From assembly GCA_021371955.1 (NCBI GenBank), contig JAJFVD010000014.1, positions 20,538 through 84,537 of the forward strand: a stretch of 64,000 nt of DNA, read 5' to 3'. Origin of the DNA: Bacteroidales bacterium. Lineage in GTDB: Bacteria > Bacteroidota > Bacteroidia > Bacteroidales > UBA932. The position numbers and the translations under genes are program-made. The notes below the pieces were generated by a model. The model searched no databases and was not told the DNA's origin. It was given only the letters and a program-made list of their open reading frames with translations. Shown one piece after another: positions 14,537-44,073 of the stretch. Every line of letters starts with the position of its first letter. Position 1 is the stretch's first letter.

Positions 14537-14546
14537 GCAAGCTTTT

Positions 14547-14655
14547 TTCCCCTGGGGAAATTTGTTAAGTAGCTCACAGCTTGCAATTTAAACCATTTTC
14601 CCAAAAGTAGCTATCTCATTCATTTTCTGCAAATTAACAAATTTCCCCTGGGGAA
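14547..14655. repeat. 95-bp-spaced inverted-arm element, copy 1 (TTCCCC arm type)
   Basis: TTCCCCTGGGGAAATTTGTTA ... TAACAAATTTCCCCTGGGGAA; core centres 14553/14649 (96 apart). Confidence 0.9.
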
Positions 14656-14713
14656 GGCAGCTCGTGAGGCAATCGCATCATAAAATCCTGTGCTTTTGCA
14701 TCATCAATCCTAC

Positions 14714-16410: not shown

Positions 16411-16469
16411 GACGCCTTTTTCCCCGACGCCCTTTCCCCCGACGCCCTTTCTCCGACGCCGTTTTCCCC
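16411..16469 (+). repeat. 4 tandem ~15-bp units GACGCCNTTTTCCCC
   Basis: Units start at 16411, 16426, 16441 and 16455; the last is the outer half of the copy 2 left arm. Confidence 0.85.
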
Positions 16470-16572
16470 AGGGGAAATTTGTTATGTCGCTCATAACGTG
16501 CAACTTAAACCTCTGAGCCAAAAAGGGCTATTTCATTCATCTACTGCAAATTACCAAATTTCCCCTGGGGAA
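16464..16572. repeat. Inverted-arm element, copy 2
   Basis: TTCCCCAGGGGAAATTTGTTA ... TACCAAATTTCCCCTGGGGAA; centres 16470/16566 (96). Confidence 0.9.
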
Positions 16573-16624
16573 AAACGGCACCCTGACGGTTGGCTGCGCA
16601 CACGGTGTCGGCCTTCCTTCTCCG

Positions 16625-16696
16625 CCTCTGGACTCACCCCTCCACCCTTGGGGTCACCCCTCCACCTCTGGACTCACCACTCCACCCCTGGGGTCA
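16625..16696 (+). repeat. Tandem 20-bp units in an ABAB pattern
   Basis: cctctggactcacccctcca / cccttggggtcacccctcca / cctctggactcaccactcca / cccctggggtca. Confidence 0.85.
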
Positions 16697-16788
16697 TTTG
16701 GTACTCCACTGGTTATAAGCCAATTACCAAAATCACTTAAAACACTAAGTACCTGTAAATATGCACGATACCAAATGACCCCTGGGGT
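16684..16788. repeat. Inverted-arm element, copy 3 (ACCCC...TCATTTGGTA arm type)
   Basis: ACCCCTGGGGTCATTTGGTA ... TACCAAATGACCCCTGGGGT; centres 16689/16783 (94). Confidence 0.9.
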
Positions 16789-16864
16789 GGTGAGGGGGCC
16801 GTTTCGTACGTCGAAGCACCAAAAACGAAAAATCATCGTAATTTCGCAGGAAATTTCGGAACAG

Positions 16865-20170: not shown

Positions 20171-20280
20171 TTCTAAAATGCTTATTGTCTGCAAAATTAT
20201 ATATTTATTTGGGATTTACTCTTTTAAGCATCATAATGTGTAAATAATCCTGCAATGCTATGCTTTGTGGGACGCAGTTT

Positions 20281-20389
20281 TTCCCCAGGGGAAATTTGTT
20301 ATATCGTTCATAATGTGCGACTTAAACCCACAAACCAAAAGGGACTATCTCATTCATTTTCTGCAAGTTAACAAATTTCCCCTGGGGAA
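20281..20389. repeat. Inverted-arm element, copy 4
   Basis: TTCCCCAGGGGAAATTTGTTA ... TAACAAATTTCCCCTGGGGAA; centres 20287/20383 (96); interior similar to copies 1 and 2. Confidence 0.9.
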
Positions 20390-20509
20390 AAACGGCACCC
20401 AAGGTTGGGCGGCAAGGGTGGGCGGAACAGGTGTGGTCGGTGAGAAAGGGGTAAAAAGAACATTTAAAATAATTTTCCTATCTTTATATAATTGGTAAAA
20501 CCATTATCC

Positions 20510-32848: not shown

Positions 32849-33628
32849 TTACTTCTTCTTAGCCTCTTCCACAAGATGTTTGAAAATACCAAGAAACGTA
32901 TCAATGCCATTTGATGTGAAAACTTCCGGATGGAACTGAACTCCAAATACTCTTGTGCTTCCGATTTTCTCAATAGCTTCAACAACACCGTCTTTTGACC
33001 TTGCTGTAACACGGAATCCCGGAGCAATGTCCTTTACACCCTGATGGTGAAAAGTATTTACAACCACTGTGTCCAGATTGATTTGCTTATTGAGCAGCGA
33101 GCCTTTTTCGATTTGAATTGAATGGGTTCCGTACCAGCCCGGTGCTTTTTGACTGTGTTTAATTGCATAGCCGTTAAGCTGAGAGGGAAGATCCTGATAA
33201 AGAGAGCCTCCGAACGCAACATTCATAAGTTGTTCCCCGCGGCAAATCCCAAGAACAGGAAGACCTTTGGCAACAGCCATTCTTATCAGCATTACATCAA
33301 AAGCGTCCCGTTTTGGAGCAATTTCTCCCTGTGCGGGAACAGGCTCTTCGCCAAACCATTTAAGCGGGTCCACATCCTCGCCTCCGGTCATTATTATACC
33401 ATCTACCCTTTCAAGCATTCCTGCTATAAGTTCCGGGTCTTCTGTAATTGGAAGTACTACCGGAACACCGCCTGCGCGGATAACAGAGTTCACATATGTA
33501 AGCTGTGTTGAAGTGTTTGTACCGTCACCCATGGTGGAAGAGATGCCAATTACGGGCTTTTTGCCGTTCTGGGCAAACACAGATGCTGCAATCAGAACGA
33601 AAACGAAAAGAGTGCAAAGTTTTTTCAT
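32849..33628 (-). CDS. Peptidase C26 / gamma-glutamyl-gamma-aminobutyrate hydrolase family, with signal peptide
   Basis: GGED, LGICRG, VNTFHHQ, GVQFHPE; MKKLCTLFVFVLIAASVFA signal. Confidence 0.88.
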   Translation of the reverse strand: MKKLCTLFVFVLIAASVFAQNGKKPVIGISSTMGDGTNTSTQLTYVNSVIRAGGVPVVLPITEDPELIAGMLERVDGIIMTGGEDVDPLKWFGEEPVPAQGEIAPKRDAFDVMLIRMAVAKGLPVLGICRGEQLMNVAFGGSLYQDLPSQLNGYAIKHSQKAPGWYGTHSIQIEKGSLLNKQINLDTVVVNTFHHQGVKDIAPGFRVTARSKDGVVEAIEKIGSTRVFGVQFHPEVFTSNGIDTFLGIFKHLVEEAKKK

Positions 33629-33643
33629 GATTTTTGTTTTTTG

Positions 33644-33749
33644 ATCCCTCGGTTTTCGTGTTAAAAGCCGGAGAATCATATAGTTAGTAAATATGTTGTT
33701 GTTTGATAAAGCATTGTTAATTAGCGAATTAACACGGAAACCGAGGGAT
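33644..33749. repeat. Inverted-arm element, copy 5 (variant arms)
   Basis: ATCCCTCGGTTTTCGTGTTAA ... TTAACACGGAAACCGAGGGAT (20/21 complementary); centres 33649/33744 (95). Confidence 0.75.
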
Positions 33750-35443
33750 TAAAGCCTATTCCACTTTCCGAAATTCTCGCCATATCCAAAGTTGATATCA
33801 ATGGATGTAGCAGGGGTTTTCCCGTCTCCGTTGAGTTCAAATGTAATAGGGAACCCGTGTCCGTCGCTGCGGAAAGTGTAATCATTCCCGTTTTTATGGA
33901 TCAGTTTGTGCTTCCACCCTTGTGGCCCAACGGTAATATACAAATCTTCCCCTTCAAGGGTAACTACTGCCTTTCCAAAAAGTTCCCCTTTGTCATAAAC
34001 ACCTGTCAGCAAAGCTTTATCCGGAGCCGGTTTAACAACAAGTTCCTTTTTCTGTTTGACTGCTTTTAATGCTCCCTCTTTTTCCGACTTCTTCCAGTTC
34101 TCAAAGTATTCTTTACTGTAATCCTTTGTAGGATAACCCTTATACAAATCAATCAGCCTCCGCATCAATGCATATCTCGGACTGTCCGGAGCCTCTGAGT
34201 TTACAAGGACAACGAGTCCAAGGTTAAGTTCGGGAACGAAAGCGGCTAATGTTGTAAAGCCCCAGGTTGTGCCTGTGTGGAAATACAATCTGTATCGGCT
34301 GTTTTGCTCAATGAACCAGCACTGGCCGTATAGTGTCGTGCGGGTTGAGTCCTGCGAAGTTATTGTTTGTCCTCTGTGGAGGTAGTTCATGTTTTTACGG
34401 CTGATTACCTCTTTGCCGTTTACCTTACCTTTGTCCAGATGGAACTGAATATATTTTGCCATATCGGTGGCCGATGAAACAACTGAACCTGCCGGGCCAA
34501 CAACTGTGAGCCAGAAAGGAGCCTGCTCTTCGCCATACATTGCCTTGATGGAAAGCGAATCTGTCCATGTTGTGTCGTTAATTATTGCTCCTTTTTCATA
34601 GTTTAGTTCGTGAGGAACCGATACATTTTTTGCAGCAAGGAAGCCGTCGCCGTTAAGTGTGCTGTTAACCATTCCCAGAGGCATAAAAACTCTCTCCCTC
34701 ACATTGTCTTCCCAGCTTTTGCCGGTAAGCTTTTCAATAATCTTCTGAGCAATTATGAATGTAATATTGTTGTATTCGTATGCTCCGCGGAAACTGTATC
34801 CCGGTTTTAGAAGCGGAAACATTTTGTACACATCGTCCCTTGAGTAGCCAAGATTGGGGATGTATGTTCCCTGCTGGCCCTTAATGCCGGTGCGGTGAAT
34901 CATGATATCCTTAACCTGAATGTTCTCCTCTACCCACTTGTCATAAAGCTTAAAATCAGGAAGAATATTCTTGACGGTGTCGTCCCATTTGATTTTACCT
35001 TCGTCAACCAAAGATGCCATTACTGCTGCGGTAAACGATTTGGAAACCGACCCAATCTGGAAAACTGTATTTTCATCTACAGGCAATTTGCCATTGATGT
35101 CCTTCACACCAAAACCCTTTGCGAATACAAGTTTCCCATCTTTCATAACAGAAACTGCCATTCCTGGAATCATCCACTCTTTTTGCACCTTGCCCACATA
35201 GGATTCAAATTCCTTTATGATTTGTTCATTGGTTAGTGCTGCAACTGCCGGCGGGGCAACGGGAAGCGCAGGTTTCGCTACAGGTTTTGCCGCAACCGGT
35301 TTTTTGACAGTTTGGGTAACAGTTTGTTTAACCGGACTTTTAGCGGTCTGCGGATTAGTATTTGTTTGCGCAGATAAATTGGTAGAAATTGACAGTACAA
35401 AAGCGAGTGTCAGAGATGAAATTAAAATCAGAGGGGTTTTCAT
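33749..35443 (-). CDS. Beta-lactamase-family serine hydrolase with C-terminal extension
   Basis: SxxK (SVSK), YxN (YNN), HTG; signal peptide and Pro/Ala/Lys linker. Confidence 0.88.
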   Translation of the reverse strand: MKTPLILISSLTLAFVLSISTNLSAQTNTNPQTAKSPVKQTVTQTVKKPVAAKPVAKPALPVAPPAVAALTNEQIIKEFESYVGKVQKEWMIPGMAVSVMKDGKLVFAKGFGVKDINGKLPVDENTVFQIGSVSKSFTAAVMASLVDEGKIKWDDTVKNILPDFKLYDKWVEENIQVKDIMIHRTGIKGQQGTYIPNLGYSRDDVYKMFPLLKPGYSFRGAYEYNNITFIIAQKIIEKLTGKSWEDNVRERVFMPLGMVNSTLNGDGFLAAKNVSVPHELNYEKGAIINDTTWTDSLSIKAMYGEEQAPFWLTVVGPAGSVVSSATDMAKYIQFHLDKGKVNGKEVISRKNMNYLHRGQTITSQDSTRTTLYGQCWFIEQNSRYRLYFHTGTTWGFTTLAAFVPELNLGLVVLVNSEAPDSPRYALMRRLIDLYKGYPTKDYSKEYFENWKKSEKEGALKAVKQKKELVVKPAPDKALLTGVYDKGELFGKAVVTLEGEDLYITVGPQGWKHKLIHKNGNDYTFRSDGHGFPITFELNGDGKTPATSIDINFGYGENFGKWNRL

Positions 35444-36965: not shown

Positions 36966-37037
36966 AATCTTCGCGGAAGTTTTTCACCTCCACGGTCACG
37001 TGTGGAGTCAGCTGTTCACCTCTTGGGCCAACCATTC

Positions 37038-37142
37038 ACCCCTGGGGTCATTTGGTACAGCACACAAAATCAACAACTTACTTAAAAAGCACTTTTTCGT
37101 AAACGGCTAATATATAGGTATTTGCCAAATGACCCCTGGGGT
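37038..37142. repeat. Inverted-arm element, copy 6
   Basis: ACCCCTGGGGTCATTTGGTA ... TGCCAAATGACCCCTGGGGT; centres 37043/37137 (94). Confidence 0.9.
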
Positions 37143-37193
37143 GCTCGGGGCCGGGGCTGGTGCTGCGGGTGGGTGCTGCGGATGGGAGGAGCA

Positions 37194-38258: not shown

Positions 38259-38345
38259 TCCTATTATTTAAAGAACGCAAATGTAAGAAATAAAATGGCC
38301 ACACAGTTACACCAGACCGCACCACACTTTTTCCACCACACTGTT

Positions 38346-38453
38346 TTCCCCAGGGGAAATATGTTATAATACACACTATCAAGGCATTGTGGCTATTTCT
38401 GAAAACGCATAAACTATTGATTAACTACACTTTAACAAATTTCCCCTGGGGTA
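38346..38453. repeat. Inverted-arm element, copy 7
   Basis: TTCCCCAGGGGAAATATGTTA ... TAACAAATTTCCCCTGGGG; centres 38352/38447 (95). Confidence 0.9.
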
Positions 38454-38460
38454 GACACAC

Positions 38461-38867: not shown

Positions 38868-38925
38868 AGTTTTTAGGTTTAAGGGTTTACTCACCAAATT
38901 TAGAATATAAATACCATAATCCCAA

Positions 38926-39035
38926 GTACCCCATAGGAATATTGGTATAACATTGGAATAGCGGCGTTTATGAAACATTCTAAATACCAACAAGTGCCTT
39001 ACTCACAATACTATAACAACATTCCTATGGGGTAC
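38926..39035. repeat. Inverted-arm element, copy 8 (variant arms)
   Basis: GTACCCCATAGGAATATTGGTATA ... TATAACAACATTCCTATGGGGTAC; centres 38933/39028 (95). Confidence 0.8.
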
Positions 39036-39080
39036 GGGGGTTTGGTTTAGTCCTCCCGGACCGAAGAGTTGCTCCTCTCA

Positions 39081-39131
39081 CCCTCGTTTTCCACCTCCGT
39101 TTTCCACCCCGTTTTGCACCCCGTTTTCCCC
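39081..39131 (+). repeat. 4 tandem 12-13-bp units CCCCGTTTTCCA
   Basis: Units start at 39081, 39094, 39107 and 39119; the last runs into the copy 9 left arm. Confidence 0.8.
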
Positions 39132-39233
39132 AGGGGAAATTTGTTATTATGCTGGTATTAATGGCGTTATGAATATTTTGAAAAACAAACAAATCGCTTA
39201 TTTACTGCGTTTTAACAAATTTCCCCTGGGGAA
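39126..39233. repeat. Inverted-arm element, copy 9
   Basis: TTCCCCAGGGGAAATTTGTTA ... TAACAAATTTCCCCTGGGGAA; centres 39132/39227 (95). Confidence 0.9.
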
Positions 39234-39280
39234 AAAGCCTGCCCTGGGTGGGGGTGGGTTCGGGAGGGCCGGCTGCCGGG

Positions 39281-40582: not shown

Positions 40583-40607
40583 TTTAAAAAGATTTTAATT
40601 TGAATTT

Positions 40608-40717
40608 GCACCCCAGGGGTTTCATGGTAAAACCCTGAGATTCTTATATTTAATAATTAACCATGTTTTTCATAACATCTTGTTTTTCTTCATCTTACCA
40701 TTTGACCCCAGGGGTGC
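40608..40717. repeat. Inverted-arm element, copy 10
   Basis: GCACCCCAGGGGTTTCATGGTAA ... TTACCATTTGACCCCAGGGGTGC; centres 40615/40710 (95). Confidence 0.85.
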
Positions 40718-40772
40718 TGGCTCTCTTGTTTTTCACCACTTGAGTCAGATATCCGGTCTCTGAGGCAGGCAT

Positions 40773-40941: not shown

Positions 40942-40991
40942 AATAAAATTTGAATCTCTGATAATTTTTTTTGTGCACCACACAGAACTTT

Positions 40992-41099
40992 TTCCTCAGG
41001 GGAAATTTGTTACTATACAGACATTCAGAACATTATACCTTTTTCAAGTAGACAGCAAGTTATTGATTAACTGCGCTTTAACAAATTTCCCCTGGGGAA
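40992..41099. repeat. Inverted-arm element, copy 11
   Basis: TTCCTCAGGGGAAATTTGTTA ... TAACAAATTTCCCCTGGGGAA; centres 40998/41093 (95). Confidence 0.9.
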
Positions 41100-42127
41100 A
41101 AACTTTGGGGGGCCGTTGCCCGCACCATTCTTTCACGGCCATTTATGTCACTCCTAAGTAGAATGTTGGAATATCCGTGCGAGGACAGCATTTCAACAGT
41201 CTCTTTGCCAAGGGATTCATTAATTTCAAGAAAGAGCAGACCTCCAGGGCGGAGTAATTCGACACCCCAGATTGCAAGTGCTTCATAAAAAATGAGCGGA
41301 TTGTTGTCCGGGACGAAAAGTGCCAAAGAGGGTTCATAATCCAGAACATTTTTATGCATCAGAGCCCTTTCCGATTCTCGTATATACGGAGGGTTGCTTA
41401 TTAAAACATCGAGAGAAGCGTGTCCGATGAGTGTCTGGCTCAGAGGTCCGGCAAGCAGATCCCCATAAAATTGCCTGGGCACGACTGAGTGTGGGCTGGA
41501 AGTTTTAGCCCCAAAAGAGGTTATATTTTTGCCACCTTTTTCGTGAGAAATATTCTTTTCCCGCCAAATCCCTGAGATGTTAATCGTTGAAACTTCAAGC
41601 GCATCCTTAGAAATATCGCACATAAACACTTCCGAACCTGGTAGTTCACATGCCAGCGAAATGCCGATGCATCCCGATCCGCATGCAGCATCAAGTATTC
41701 GCATTGGCCTGTCATTATTAAGTGCTTGACTTGTCCTGCCTAGATGGGATGATTTGTATTGTTTAGAAAGCTGTGAATTCGTTGTGTTTATCATTTCCGA
41801 GATTTCTTCAACTGTCCATCTGACCAGTTCTTCGGTTTCTGGACGGGGTATTAGGACACCCTCTTTTACAAAAAACTTATGCCCGCAAAATTCTTCAAAG
41901 CCCAGCACATACTGGAGGGGGCGGGCGGCAGCAAGCTGCCCGGCAGCACTATTCAGAAGCGATAGCTTCTCATCTGGAATTTCGCCAGAAGGCTCCACAA
42001 TATGTTCATAAGAACTCAGCCCGCAAAAGTGCTGCAATAGCCTCACGGCTATCGCCCGCCCCTCCTCTCTCGGATAAACCTTCTCGAGCACCTCTTCCGT
42101 CCTGTCTATGAACTCTTTGTAAACCAT
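41078..42127 (-). CDS. prmC: Peptide chain release factor N5-glutamine methyltransferase
   Basis: PLQYVLG, LIPRPETEEL, LDAACGSG, NPPY; stop codon lies inside element copy 11. Confidence 0.93.
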   Translation of the reverse strand: MVYKEFIDRTEEVLEKVYPREEGRAIAVRLLQHFCGLSSYEHIVEPSGEIPDEKLSLLNSAAGQLAAARPLQYVLGFEEFCGHKFFVKEGVLIPRPETEELVRWTVEEISEMINTTNSQLSKQYKSSHLGRTSQALNNDRPMRILDAACGSGCIGISLACELPGSEVFMCDISKDALEVSTINISGIWREKNISHEKGGKNITSFGAKTSSPHSVVPRQFYGDLLAGPLSQTLIGHASLDVLISNPPYIRESERALMHKNVLDYEPSLALFVPDNNPLIFYEALAIWGVELLRPGGLLFLEINESLGKETVEMLSSHGYSNILLRSDINGRERMVRATAPQSFSPGEIC

Positions 42128-42221: not shown

Positions 42222-43910
42222 ATGAAGATAAATTTCAGGACAGTTTTAGACAACCTTACGGTAATAATTGTCCGCAATCCGGTTGAGATTCTTATCTCGG
42301 TAGCGTTCTTCATTCTATCCGCCCTTACATATGAGAATATTATGGATATGAAAATTTACGGCGAAAATCTTTTTCTTGCTCCGTTAATTTTTGCTAACTC
42401 ATTCATTCTCAACAAACTTTACCCACGAGGGTATAAAAGAGTTATATATTTTATGTCAGCATTATTTATAGCTATTCCATTTATTGTTGATGCCGAACAC
42501 TGGATTTTCTCCGGAGCCTATCCGGCCACTCTTGCAATAGCTGCTGCAGGCATAGCCGTTTACAAGAACCTGCGTAGCAACGAACATTTTGTAAAAGACA
42601 TACTTGTTTTTGTCAAAGAGCTAATTTACACAATGATTATAGCAACTGCCGTCTTTCTTGTTTTAATGGCAATTGTATTTTCGGCAATATATCTGTTTGA
42701 CCTGTTTAAAGAAAGCTCAAAAGACTTTGCTTACTACATTTCCTGCTCCTGCTTTATAATTCTCGCCCCTGTAATATTTCTTTATCTGCATGCCGGATTT
42801 GACAATAAGGATGAGTTCCGGGTTTCAAAAATCTTTGAGTTCCTGATAGACTATATTCTCGCTCCGGCTTTGATTATTTACACTGCGATTCTCTATTTGT
42901 ACATTGCAAAAATTACTGTTACATGGTCTTTGCCTAAAGGCAATCTTGCCTATATGGTCTTCGCTTTCATAATATCCGCAATAGTAATAAAAGCCATTAT
43001 CCCGTTGCTGGGCAAACGCCTGTTCAGCGGTTTTTTCAACTCTTTCAGCCTGATAGCAATTCCTCCCCTCGTACTATTTTGGATAGGAGCCATTTACCGA
43101 ATTAAACAATACGGATATACCGAAGAGCGCGTGTATCTTCTTGTATGTGGAGCAATCATGACGCTTACCGTGATTCTTTTCCTCACAAAAAAATACGATA
43201 AGTACCTCTTTGTTGGATATATAACAATTGTTCTGCTCGCTCTGTTCTCTTACATTCCCCCCATTTCTGCCAAAAATATTGGTCTAAGATCGCAGACAGC
43301 TCAATTCAAATCCATCGCCTCCGATCTTAAAATGATAGGTACCGACGGAAAACTTTCAGCCCCTCCTCAGATACTTACCGATTCGGTATCAAAAGCAAAA
43401 TTCGACCGCATGTATGATATTAATCGTTACCTCGACAGGCATTCGAATGAGATTAATCCTAAGGACATTACCGGATACGAAAACGCAGGCAATATGCGCA
43501 CAGAGTTCAGCAAATGGTTTACATATCAACCTTACAACCGCAGTTCAATTCAGGGTAAGAAGGGAGAGTTTTCGATGGAAGGATTCAGTAAATTAAACGT
43601 GGATGTAAGTTTTTCAATCGTTAAGGACAGCATGCTGATATTAAATTCCGGCGGAGATGTTATTTGCCGCGCCCCGCGCTCCTTTGTTGACTCCCTGTTC
43701 GCCGCAAGACTGCAGGCGGAGAATATGCAAAAAGCTAAAATGCCGACAGACGGTTCTCCATCGGAAAGCGGGATGAAGCAACCGGCTCAGTATTCCGATT
43801 CGCTTCTCTATATGGACATCAATAATTACAGAATTGTTTTCAGCGAGATAAAATTCGATAAAGAGAAGAAAGTCTCAACCGCACATATCAAGGCATTGCT
43901 GATACGGTGA
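42222..43910 (+). CDS. Polytopic membrane protein, DUF4153-like
   Basis: Many TM helices; ILYLYIAKI..TWSLPKG, RIKQYGYTEER patterns. Confidence 0.7.
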   Translation: MKINFRTVLDNLTVIIVRNPVEILISVAFFILSALTYENIMDMKIYGENLFLAPLIFANSFILNKLYPRGYKRVIYFMSALFIAIPFIVDAEHWIFSGAYPATLAIAAAGIAVYKNLRSNEHFVKDILVFVKELIYTMIIATAVFLVLMAIVFSAIYLFDLFKESSKDFAYYISCSCFIILAPVIFLYLHAGFDNKDEFRVSKIFEFLIDYILAPALIIYTAILYLYIAKITVTWSLPKGNLAYMVFAFIISAIVIKAIIPLLGKRLFSGFFNSFSLIAIPPLVLFWIGAIYRIKQYGYTEERVYLLVCGAIMTLTVILFLTKKYDKYLFVGYITIVLLALFSYIPPISAKNIGLRSQTAQFKSIASDLKMIGTDGKLSAPPQILTDSVSKAKFDRMYDINRYLDRHSNEINPKDITGYENAGNMRTEFSKWFTYQPYNRSSIQGKKGEFSMEGFSKLNVDVSFSIVKDSMLILNSGGDVICRAPRSFVDSLFAARLQAENMQKAKMPTDGSPSESGMKQPAQYSDSLLYMDINNYRIVFSEIKFDKEKKVSTAHIKALLIR

Positions 43911-44073
43911 CGCAGTTTGAGGTAAACATCGCATTGATACATAATACACTATCAAGCACTTACTAAAAAGTAGCATCTAAGATGCCATCCTTTTTAGTAA
44001 TCAATTAACAATCTGAGCATTGCAGGTCATGTTCGATTTGCACAAATTTATTTCGGACGAAACCGGCAGTCCC

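Follow-up and report, generated by a model that had tools for sequence, protein, structure and literature searches.

The stretch of Bacteroidales DNA analyzed here (the window, 64,000 nucleotides long; GenBank assembly GCA_021371955.1, contig JAJFVD010000014.1, positions 20,538 to 84,537) carries a 106-base inverted repeat in the intergenic space between a gene for a β-lactamase-fold hydrolase and a gene for a C26 γ-glutamyl peptidase-like protein. This analysis concerns that repeat, the candidate element, and its relation to the repetitive extragenic palindromes (REPs) and REP-associated tyrosine transposases (RAYTs) of bacteria. The two genes are co-directional, forming a probable operon around the candidate, and the locus is arranged as follows.

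32849..33628, minus strand: C26 gamma-glutamyl peptidase-like gene, downstream; its ATG, at 33628, is 15 nucleotides (nt) from the left end of the element
33644..33664, unstranded: left arm, type C, ATCCCTCGGTTTTCGTGTTAA; pairing reaches outward to 33640
33665..33728, unstranded: AT-rich interior (spacer), of a length kept across the family, poorly conserved in sequence and without a stable fold
33729..33749, unstranded: right arm, TTAACACGGAAACCGAGGGAT; pairing reaches outward to 33753
33749..33751, minus strand: TAA stop of the hydrolase open reading frame (ORF), inside the outer TTAAT of the arm
33749..35443, minus strand: hydrolase ORF, upstream (564 amino acids, β-lactamase fold, PF00144)

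The two arms are complementary at 20 of 21 positions, and the sole exception, produced by one A-to-G change in the right arm relative to the type C consensus, is a T·G wobble on the plus strand. Counted outward as well, pairing spans 25 positions (33640-33664 with 33729-33753, 92%). Folded as single-stranded DNA (ssDNA), the candidate gives -20.8 kcal/mol on the plus strand and -17.3 on the minus strand (z-scores of -5.6 and -5.0), comparable to copies of the main type of the family, and the predicted fold consists of a terminal stem of 24 to 25 bp around an essentially unstructured interior. A first-pass annotation of this DNA had placed the feature at 33644-33751; the start holds, and the end is 2 nt too far, since the arm ends at 33749. 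It was right that the outer end meets the TAA of the serine hydrolase gene, the final T of the right arm being the first base of the TTA at 33749-33751, and that the arms keep both their complementarity and the spacing of the main type: the gap from TGTTA to TAACA is 66 nt here and 65 to 67 nt in 32 other copies. Rfam 15 gave no match at gathering score in the whole window, and only sub-threshold generic hairpin models (plant miRNA precursors) at E values up to 1 between 33500 and 33900. Likewise, a terminator and promoter scan around the candidate found no terminator-like site or tail, and nothing exceeded the shuffle level.

The genome to which the window belongs (G000; Bacteroidales, 2.5 Mb, 98% complete) was compared with three sister genomes (G048, G016, and G013) and with extracted contigs or regions, designated by L numbers. 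A genome-wide scan of G000 returned 33 elements of one architecture, namely an arm of ~23 nt ending in TG(T/G)TA, 65 to 67 nt, and a mirrored arm, all of them lying between ORFs. Their neighbors are housekeeping genes in tandem (15), convergent (10), or divergent (7) arrangement. The arms define type A (TTTTCCCCWGGGGAAATTTGTTA, ~18 copies), type B (CACCCCWGGGGTCATTTGGTA, ~10 copies), type C (TTAATCCCTCGGTTTTCGTGTTA, four copies), and type D (GTACCCCATAGGAAT, a single copy). Type C copies lie at C5:48538, C9:150727, C15:13319, and C12:54180, the last being the candidate. Since the candidate is a member of this four-copy subfamily, it is not the lone, highly diverged copy of the main type that the first-pass annotation had taken it for; it belongs to a discrete subfamily with further copies in relatives. 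Aligned from the inner end, the type C and type A arms are identical at 12 of 23 positions. Type C arms (ATCCCTCGGTTTTCGTGTTA) are not self-complementary, whereas types A and B carry palindromes within the arm (TTTCCCCWGGGGAAA, ACCCCWGGGGT). Among type C copies the arms are conserved and the interiors almost unrelated, and the interiors of types A and B have a weak, quasi-palindromic consensus whose pairing is not kept in individual copies. At C15:13286-13340, the type C left arm plus 11 nt is tandemly duplicated (half-arm at C15:13286); this duplication is found, partly deleted, in G016 (L013) too.

G000 has five genes of the Y1_Tnp family (PF01797). One of them, RAYT_A (L002:1042-1797, 251 amino acids), carries the motifs DNHVH, YILLNP, and YRWSS and a C-terminal helix-turn-helix (HTH). 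Its neighbor is tsf, and type A elements lie close on both sides, 39 nt past its stop and 65 nt ahead of its start. A single-copy RAYT gene with its own flanking repeats is the signature of a REPtron, that is, a RAYT gene together with its two flanking elements, and type A elements likewise flank the RAYT_A orthologues of two named metagenome-assembled genomes (95% and 88% identity). The other four RAYT-like paralogues of G000 are ~35% identical to RAYT_A, and each is flanked by its own long palindromes, such as TACTAAAAAGGATGGCATCTAAGATGCCATCCTTTTTAGTA, which are unrelated to types A to D (L001:902-956 and 1896-1950; L003:1306-1359 and 2296-2349; L005:887-929; L004:890-1020). Type C elements have an enzyme of their own as well. 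When a metagenome was scanned with the type C arm, nine contigs were returned, and one of them, L107, encodes a RAYT of 251 amino acids (RAYT_C) that aligns with RAYT_A without gaps at 48% identity and has type C elements on both sides, the upstream one 65 nt from the ATG. Contig L143 (P0001) shows the same type C flanking arrangement around a RAYT 94% identical to that of L107.

The RAYT matches the Pfam family Y1_Tnp above its cutoff and the NCBIfam family REP_Tyr_transpos (REP-associated tyrosine transposase) with an E value of 1e-15. The predicted structure of RAYT_C (pLDDT 79.8) has as its best match 4er8, the Escherichia coli RAYT bound to a REP hairpin (E value of 1.5e-6, TM 0.73), and the IS200/IS608/ISDra2 transposases rank after it. 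A phmmer search of PDB with RAYT_A returned no match, 4er8 being reached by the fold search only.

On either side of the type A REPtron, G000 C9 is 92 to 97% identical to the outer flanks of L107 and L143, and the RAYT_C site is therefore the same chromosomal locus. At this locus, the RAYT gene sits between tsf and a TonB-receptor gene (Plug domain). G048, a complete genome whose aligned regions are 89 to 96% identical to the window (95% at the candidate locus), has there RAYT_B, flanked by type B elements and 59% identical to RAYT_A and 97.8% identical to P0003, while G016 and G013 have RAYT_A. Alleles A, B, and C are thus 48 to 59% identical in amino acid sequence, in genomes that are 92 to 98% identical in the flanks (G000 C9:181300-183500, in L002/L112; G048:C1:1875380-1876408, in L111; L107; L143; L153). 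Because homology between alleles is lost at the outer boundaries of the flanking elements or no more than ~120 nt away, the variable unit is the element, the RAYT gene, and the second element together. Directly past the REPtron, an FMN riboswitch (RF00050, 111 bits; L112:2557-2672, at ~183022-183137 of G000 C9) precedes the TonB-dependent receptor gene.

Twelve further RAYT homologues, 41 to 94% identical to RAYT_C, were traced to contigs, and each of those with called neighbors adjoins tsf and/or the Plug receptor gene. Eleven of the 12 have flanking elements of ~100 to 110 bp, with arms of types B, C, and F to J, and arm similarity parallels RAYT identity among these homologues. The additional arm types are as follows.

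Arm type F: TTGTCCAAGTCATTCGTGGTA
Arm type G: CAGCCCTATGCTTTCATGGCCA
Arm type H: CTCWGAGYTTTTTTGCCTTT
Arm type I: CTCTGAGATTATTTGACAAA
Arm type J: ATCTCAGAGCTGTAGTGC

Types A and B are present in all four genomes of the comparison; type C is represented by three to four pairs in G000, G048, and G016 and by two unpaired arms in G013. We searched these four genomes for an orthologue of RAYT_C and found none, and since they have no such orthologue, their type C copies are orphans. Types A and C co-occur, confined to four of 52 genomes of the genus, and a check of 400 further genomes of the order showed type C arms at no more than the control level. Together, these findings lead us to conclude, with a probability of roughly 0.8, that the candidate is an orphan copy of a REPIN-like, nonautonomous hairpin element (type C) of a Bacteroidales REPtron system.

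In this system, a type C element comprises two inverted arms of ~23 nt and a spacer of ~66 nt, and a single-copy RAYT-like HUH/Y1 gene is placed between tsf and the TonB-receptor gene with two elements of its own flanking it. By analogy with RAYT and IS200/IS605 enzymes, the RAYT would recognize the element and cut it as an ssDNA hairpin, spreading copies mostly locally. Arm sequence differs from one RAYT lineage to the next while geometry and complementarity stay constant. Since the locus is occupied by RAYT_A in G000 and by RAYT_B or RAYT_C in its very close relatives, the type C copies of G000 would have been deposited when or where RAYT_C was present and would now be immobile relics, vertically inherited and slowly decaying. 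Recognition and cleavage of the hairpin, and likewise the order in which the alleles replaced one another, are steps that we infer. Processing of ssDNA is established for the E. coli TnpA-REP and for IS608, as summarized in PMC6006769 (Messing 2012; Ton-Hoang 2012). Because type C arms have no palindrome of their own, the hairpin substrate, if any, must be the long one formed between the arms; alternatively, the C-terminal HTH may read the type C arm as duplex DNA.

Several observations speak against the assignment. The RAYT scores below the NCBIfam equivalog cutoff (57.5 versus 80 bits), and the lack of an arm palindrome sets type C apart from textbook REPs as well as from types A and B. Among the genomes compared, we saw no type C transposition event, and an empty site for the candidate is seen solely in relatives whose divergence is too great for fixing the element boundaries. 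In addition, the orphan arms are ~3 times more conserved than the interiors, which simple decay does not predict, although several of the orthologues compared come from the metagenome that also holds RAYT_C and may not all be orphans.

A broader reading, to which we would give a little less than even odds, is that the whole REPtron is a cassette exchangeable at one fixed locus between tsf and the FMN-riboswitch-controlled TonB-receptor gene. At least three alleles would segregate there, each with its own arm specificity, and elements of absent alleles would be kept as orphans with conserved arms, their outer TAA often serving as a host stop codon. A three-allele locus with orphan element populations looks new. 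If the cassette reading is true, the locus would be a natural swap experiment for the code by which RAYTs recognize hairpins, and it would be evidence for the survival of hairpin elements beyond the loss of their enzyme, possibly through selection at the level of the host.

We also counted inverted repeats with 21-nt arms and a gap of 58 to 75 nt in the 2.5-Mb genome and in ten dinucleotide-preserving shuffles of it. With at least 20 of 21 positions complementary, there were 23 loci in the real genome and none in each of the ten shuffles; with at least 18 of 21, there were 38 against a shuffled mean of 0.9. Repeats as good as the candidate are thus not to be expected by chance, a comparison of the kind that the first-pass annotation had proposed for shuffled intergenic DNA. 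We give a practically negligible probability to an origin by chance, or to membership in some wholly unrelated family whose spacing is the same by coincidence. The limited arm match to type A noted above would suit such an origin, as would the interior of the candidate, which has no detectable similarity to those of types A and B: an nhmmer profile of the A/B interiors gave no match to it. On the other hand, the same profile scores 12.1 and 9.6 bits against the interiors of two other type C copies, values that are meaningful only as a targeted test, so interior homology is supported for the type C subfamily and not for the candidate itself. A position-weight test of the interiors is confounded by their quasi-palindromic sequence. 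Furthermore, spacer length and the inner TGTTA equal those of the main type, and RAYT_C and RAYT_A are homologous, of equal length, at one locus, and at an equal 65-nt distance from ATG to upstream element. The shuffles and the RAYT_C locus in L107 and L143 already refute a chance or unrelated origin. The kinship to the main family that had been proposed therefore stands, in the form of a true relative that constitutes its own subfamily with its own transposase allele; the fear that it might belong to an unrelated family genome-wide proved half justified, the family being distinct yet homologous.

The first-pass annotation had held that arm-to-arm pairing and length are maintained, and not sequence. 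In an alignment of 55 distinct arm pairs, drawn from types A to D, F, and G, standard pairs fill 95.8% of the cells versus 68.3% in shuffles, and the covariation score is 0.654 versus 0.175 in shuffles and 0.10 to 0.17 in slid controls, with few independent events (about six arm types and a few variants) behind these values. Covariation, which the first-pass annotation had proposed to test on aligned copies, is present in that 18 of the 21 stem positions have changes on both sides, but most single-arm changes are uncompensated. Moreover, complementarity alone is no proof of arm-to-arm pairing, because inverted ends recognized by one and the same enzyme should be complementary anyway and would covary likewise without ever forming pairs.

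Changes within type C loci were examined among orthologues of the four type C copies, with flanks that are mostly coding. Variable sites made up 12 of 184 positions in the arms (6.5%), 52 of 266 in the interiors (19.5%), and 53 of 480 in the flanks (11%), the arms differing from the interiors with a P value of ~1e-4, and about ten of the 12 variable arm sites were uncompensated. A few compensated changes occur at fixed loci, namely in the element downstream of RAYT_C (CGGATCTCG in both L107 arms, ATC/TTC in L143, canonical TTT), at L106:735 (CCTTCGG paired with CCGAAGG), and at the C9 locus (TAATCC/GGATTA in G000, TGATCC/GGATCA in the orthologue L105). Sequence is constrained within a RAYT lineage, and across lineages nothing but complementarity and geometry persists. 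The claim of pairing over sequence was thus half right: it describes the comparison across RAYT lineages and fails within type C, where arm sequence is conserved.

The same data bear on the idea that arm complementarity is made mechanically, by arm-to-arm templating (quasipalindrome template switching or repair in an extruded hairpin), with no selection for pairing or protein recognition. Template-switch correction of quasipalindromes is reportedly an established mutational mechanism, in work associated with Ripley and with Lovett and colleagues. The concerted changes at fixed loci just listed, including the A-T to G-C exchange at C9, would be its natural product, and the type D element, single in G000, bears three unusual changes in both arms. 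We nevertheless consider templating an unlikely explanation. It does not reduce the rate of substitution, whereas the arms are ~3 times slower to evolve than the interiors; most variable arm sites among orthologues are uncompensated; and the interiors are quasi-palindromic at the consensus level only, being unpaired in individual copies. Each arm type also has a specific RAYT allele, a tie that points to protein specificity.

The contact with a stop codon is not peculiar to the candidate. In three of the four type C copies in G000, a neighboring ORF ends exactly at the TAA of the outer TAATCC of an arm, a coincidence whose chance probability we roughly estimate at ~2e-5. The overlaps are the following.

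G000 C5:48645-49730, minus strand: ORF ending in the arm
G000 C9:150372-150728, plus strand: ORF ending in the arm
Window 33749-35443, minus strand: hydrolase ORF ending in the candidate
Also L105:3358 and L106:735

In the L105 orthologue of the C9 locus, the stop is TGA instead of TAA, and the partner arm has the matching change. It may be that TAA/TTAA is a preferred target or, alternatively, that the element contributed the stop codon.

These overlaps invite the view that the hairpin is kept for a service to the host at the site, besides or instead of having a mobile origin, either as an mRNA or DNA structure between co-directional genes (a 3'-end stabilizer or insulator) or as a stop-supplying module that decouples the downstream gene. 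The low variation of the arms relative to both interiors and mostly coding flanks would fit, as would the sharing of the TAA, the C9 change that preserves a stop and is matched in the partner arm, and the position of the candidate in a probable operon with the next ATG 15 nt away. Against this, family copies follow no rule of orientation, being found in tandem, convergent, and divergent contexts, there is neither a terminator-like tail nor an Rfam match, most relatives have no element between the hydrolase and peptidase genes, and sister copies are gained and lost between close genomes. Altogether, we regard a host service as rather improbable.

The outer ends raise one further alternative, a conventional miniature inverted-repeat transposable element (MITE), unrelated to RAYT: a DDE transposase would act on its double-stranded terminal inverted repeats, and TTAA or TA would be duplicated at the target. 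The consensus ends read TTAAT...ATTAA, TTAA stands on both sides of some copies, and there is no hairpin within the type C arms themselves, all of which a MITE would share. However, the outer bases vary as complementary pairs and not as direct repeats (TTAAT/ATTAA, TTTAT/ATAAA, CTAT/ATAG). Every genomic arm match sits in doublets of ~110 bp, with no longer element bearing such ends, and the RAYT paralogue is the only gene repeatedly flanked by type C elements. A MITE origin is therefore very improbable.

As for the history of the candidate as a type C orphan, it occupies the orthologous position in G048, G016, and three metagenome contigs, with the same pair of genes around it. In relatives at ~70% identity, no element separates the two genes, and the peptidase start either overlaps the hydrolase stop or lies <60 bp from it. 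This shared site, together with the element-free distant relatives, indicates that the insertion predates the split of G000, G048, and G016. Sister copies of types A, B, and D, on the other hand, vary in presence and absence between genomes that are 91 to 97% identical in aligned regions. The empty alleles at 37039-37143 (G048) and 39128-39231 (G013) retain exactly one palindromic core, a state consistent with loss by excision or by slippage from one core to the other, or else with insertion of the element into a core that was already there. The other family copies in the window, all unstranded, are listed below.

14540..14662: type A copy (TTTTCCCCWGGGGAAATTTGTTA arms); in G048 (L132), an internal deletion with the intact left arm fused to the right core; G016 is without the element and ~50 nt of flank
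16462..16574: type A copy; missing from G048
16677..16795: type B copy (CACCCCWGGGGTCATTTGGTA arms)
20274..20396: type A copy
37037..37143: type B copy; G048 (L136) retains one palindromic core, CACCCC|TGGGGTG
38342..38457: type A copy
38918..39043: type D copy (GTACCCCATAGGAAT arms); missing from G048, G016, and G013
39124..39235: type A copy; G013 (L135) has a single core only, CTCCCCAGGGGTG
40607..40718: degenerate type B copy
40986..41105: type A copy

The type D copy (38918-39043) and its type A neighbor at 39128 have similar interiors. Other neighboring copies in G000 have common interiors too (C12 87559/88365, C1 58567/59321, and C12 35086/37003/40820). In the complete genome G048, ~21 of 30 type A, B, and C loci lie within C1 1.61-2.04 Mb, 18% of the genome, around the RAYT gene at 1.8755 Mb (binomial P of ~5e-10, ignoring non-independence). 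Clustering near the RAYT and common interiors suggest short-range duplication. A further inverted-repeat family, type E, has arms GACGCAGTTTGAGGTAAC ~74 nt apart and is represented by three doublets (G000 C1:46260, C3:73935, and C5:114832) and several single arms, one of them in the window at 43909-43929.

Among known systems, integron attC sites are also imperfect inverted repeats of similar size that lie right after stop codons, keep structure over sequence, and are read as ssDNA. We rejected this comparison: GTTA...TAAC stands at the inner ends here, whereas attC sites have R'' (RYYYAAC) and R' (GTTRRRY) outermost; the neighbors are housekeeping genes, and both an integrase and a cassette array are lacking. 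The IS200/IS605 elements (IS608 and ISDra2) have the HUH/Y1 fold, provide the second-best structural matches, and encode enzymes with ssDNA hairpin substrates that make no target duplication. In the present family, however, the gene does not move with the ends, which are independent 110-bp doublets, and the ends are alike and inverted, whereas those of the insertion sequences are distinct on the left and right.

Closer are the TIRtrons and their transposases, the TIRYTs (Di Nocera et al. 2013, PMC3733652), and the TnpAREP subclasses 2.1 and 2.6 (Quentin et al. 2018, PMC6006769), in which RAYT-like genes encode the motifs NH(V/I)H, YI..NP, and SS together with an HTH extension. The inverted repeats on their flanks differ from classical REPs and form moderately abundant families of dimers. 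Our protein resembles the HTH-bearing subclass 2.1/TIRYT group or the Bacteroidetes subclass 2.6. The TIRtron motif GGGGWSAS has a close counterpart, GGGGTCA, in type B arms, while types A and C do not fit it, and subclass 2.1 differs in being reported without REP-like sequences nearby (PMC6006769).

The element is REPIN/REPtron-like and thus of a kind already known. Like the REPIN/RAYT systems of Pseudomonas, E. coli, and Neisseria (Bertels & Rainey 2011, PMC3116915; Bertels & Rainey, bioRxiv 10.1101/2021.07.10.451892), it measures ~100 to 110 bp, has two conserved inverted ends and a variable spacer of kept length, can form a long hairpin, and is extragenic and multicopy (here 4 copies of type C and 33 of the whole family), with a single-copy HUH/Y1 gene flanked by its own repeats and one repeat family per RAYT. 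The cognate RAYT with the same repeat is found in L107 and L143 and not in G000, which has RAYT_A with type A only, and the enzyme gene keeps a conserved position at the tsf/TonB-receptor locus. Type C arms have no ~14-bp palindrome of their own at each end, and no GTAG-type tetranucleotide marks the hairpin foot, there being no GTAG or GTGG in or beside the arms. A REPIN-like element can thus do without an intra-arm palindrome, which points to the long inter-arm hairpin or to the arm sequence as the recognized feature. Copy numbers are also small here (4 to 20), with clustering near the RAYT locus and apparently local duplication. These comparisons touch on how RAYTs recognize their repeats, how REPIN families are born, and how repeats persist, and they account for a class of 110-bp intergenic inverted repeats abutting stop codons in Bacteroidales annotation. 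Finally, published systems have one locus per RAYT type, whereas three deeply diverged RAYT alleles occupy one extragenic space here. The clade therefore offers three homologous enzyme/hairpin pairs of equal length, locus, and geometry with different arms in near-identical backgrounds, and since three repeat populations co-reside in each genome, specificity swaps, cross-mobilization, and decay after enzyme loss are testable in them.

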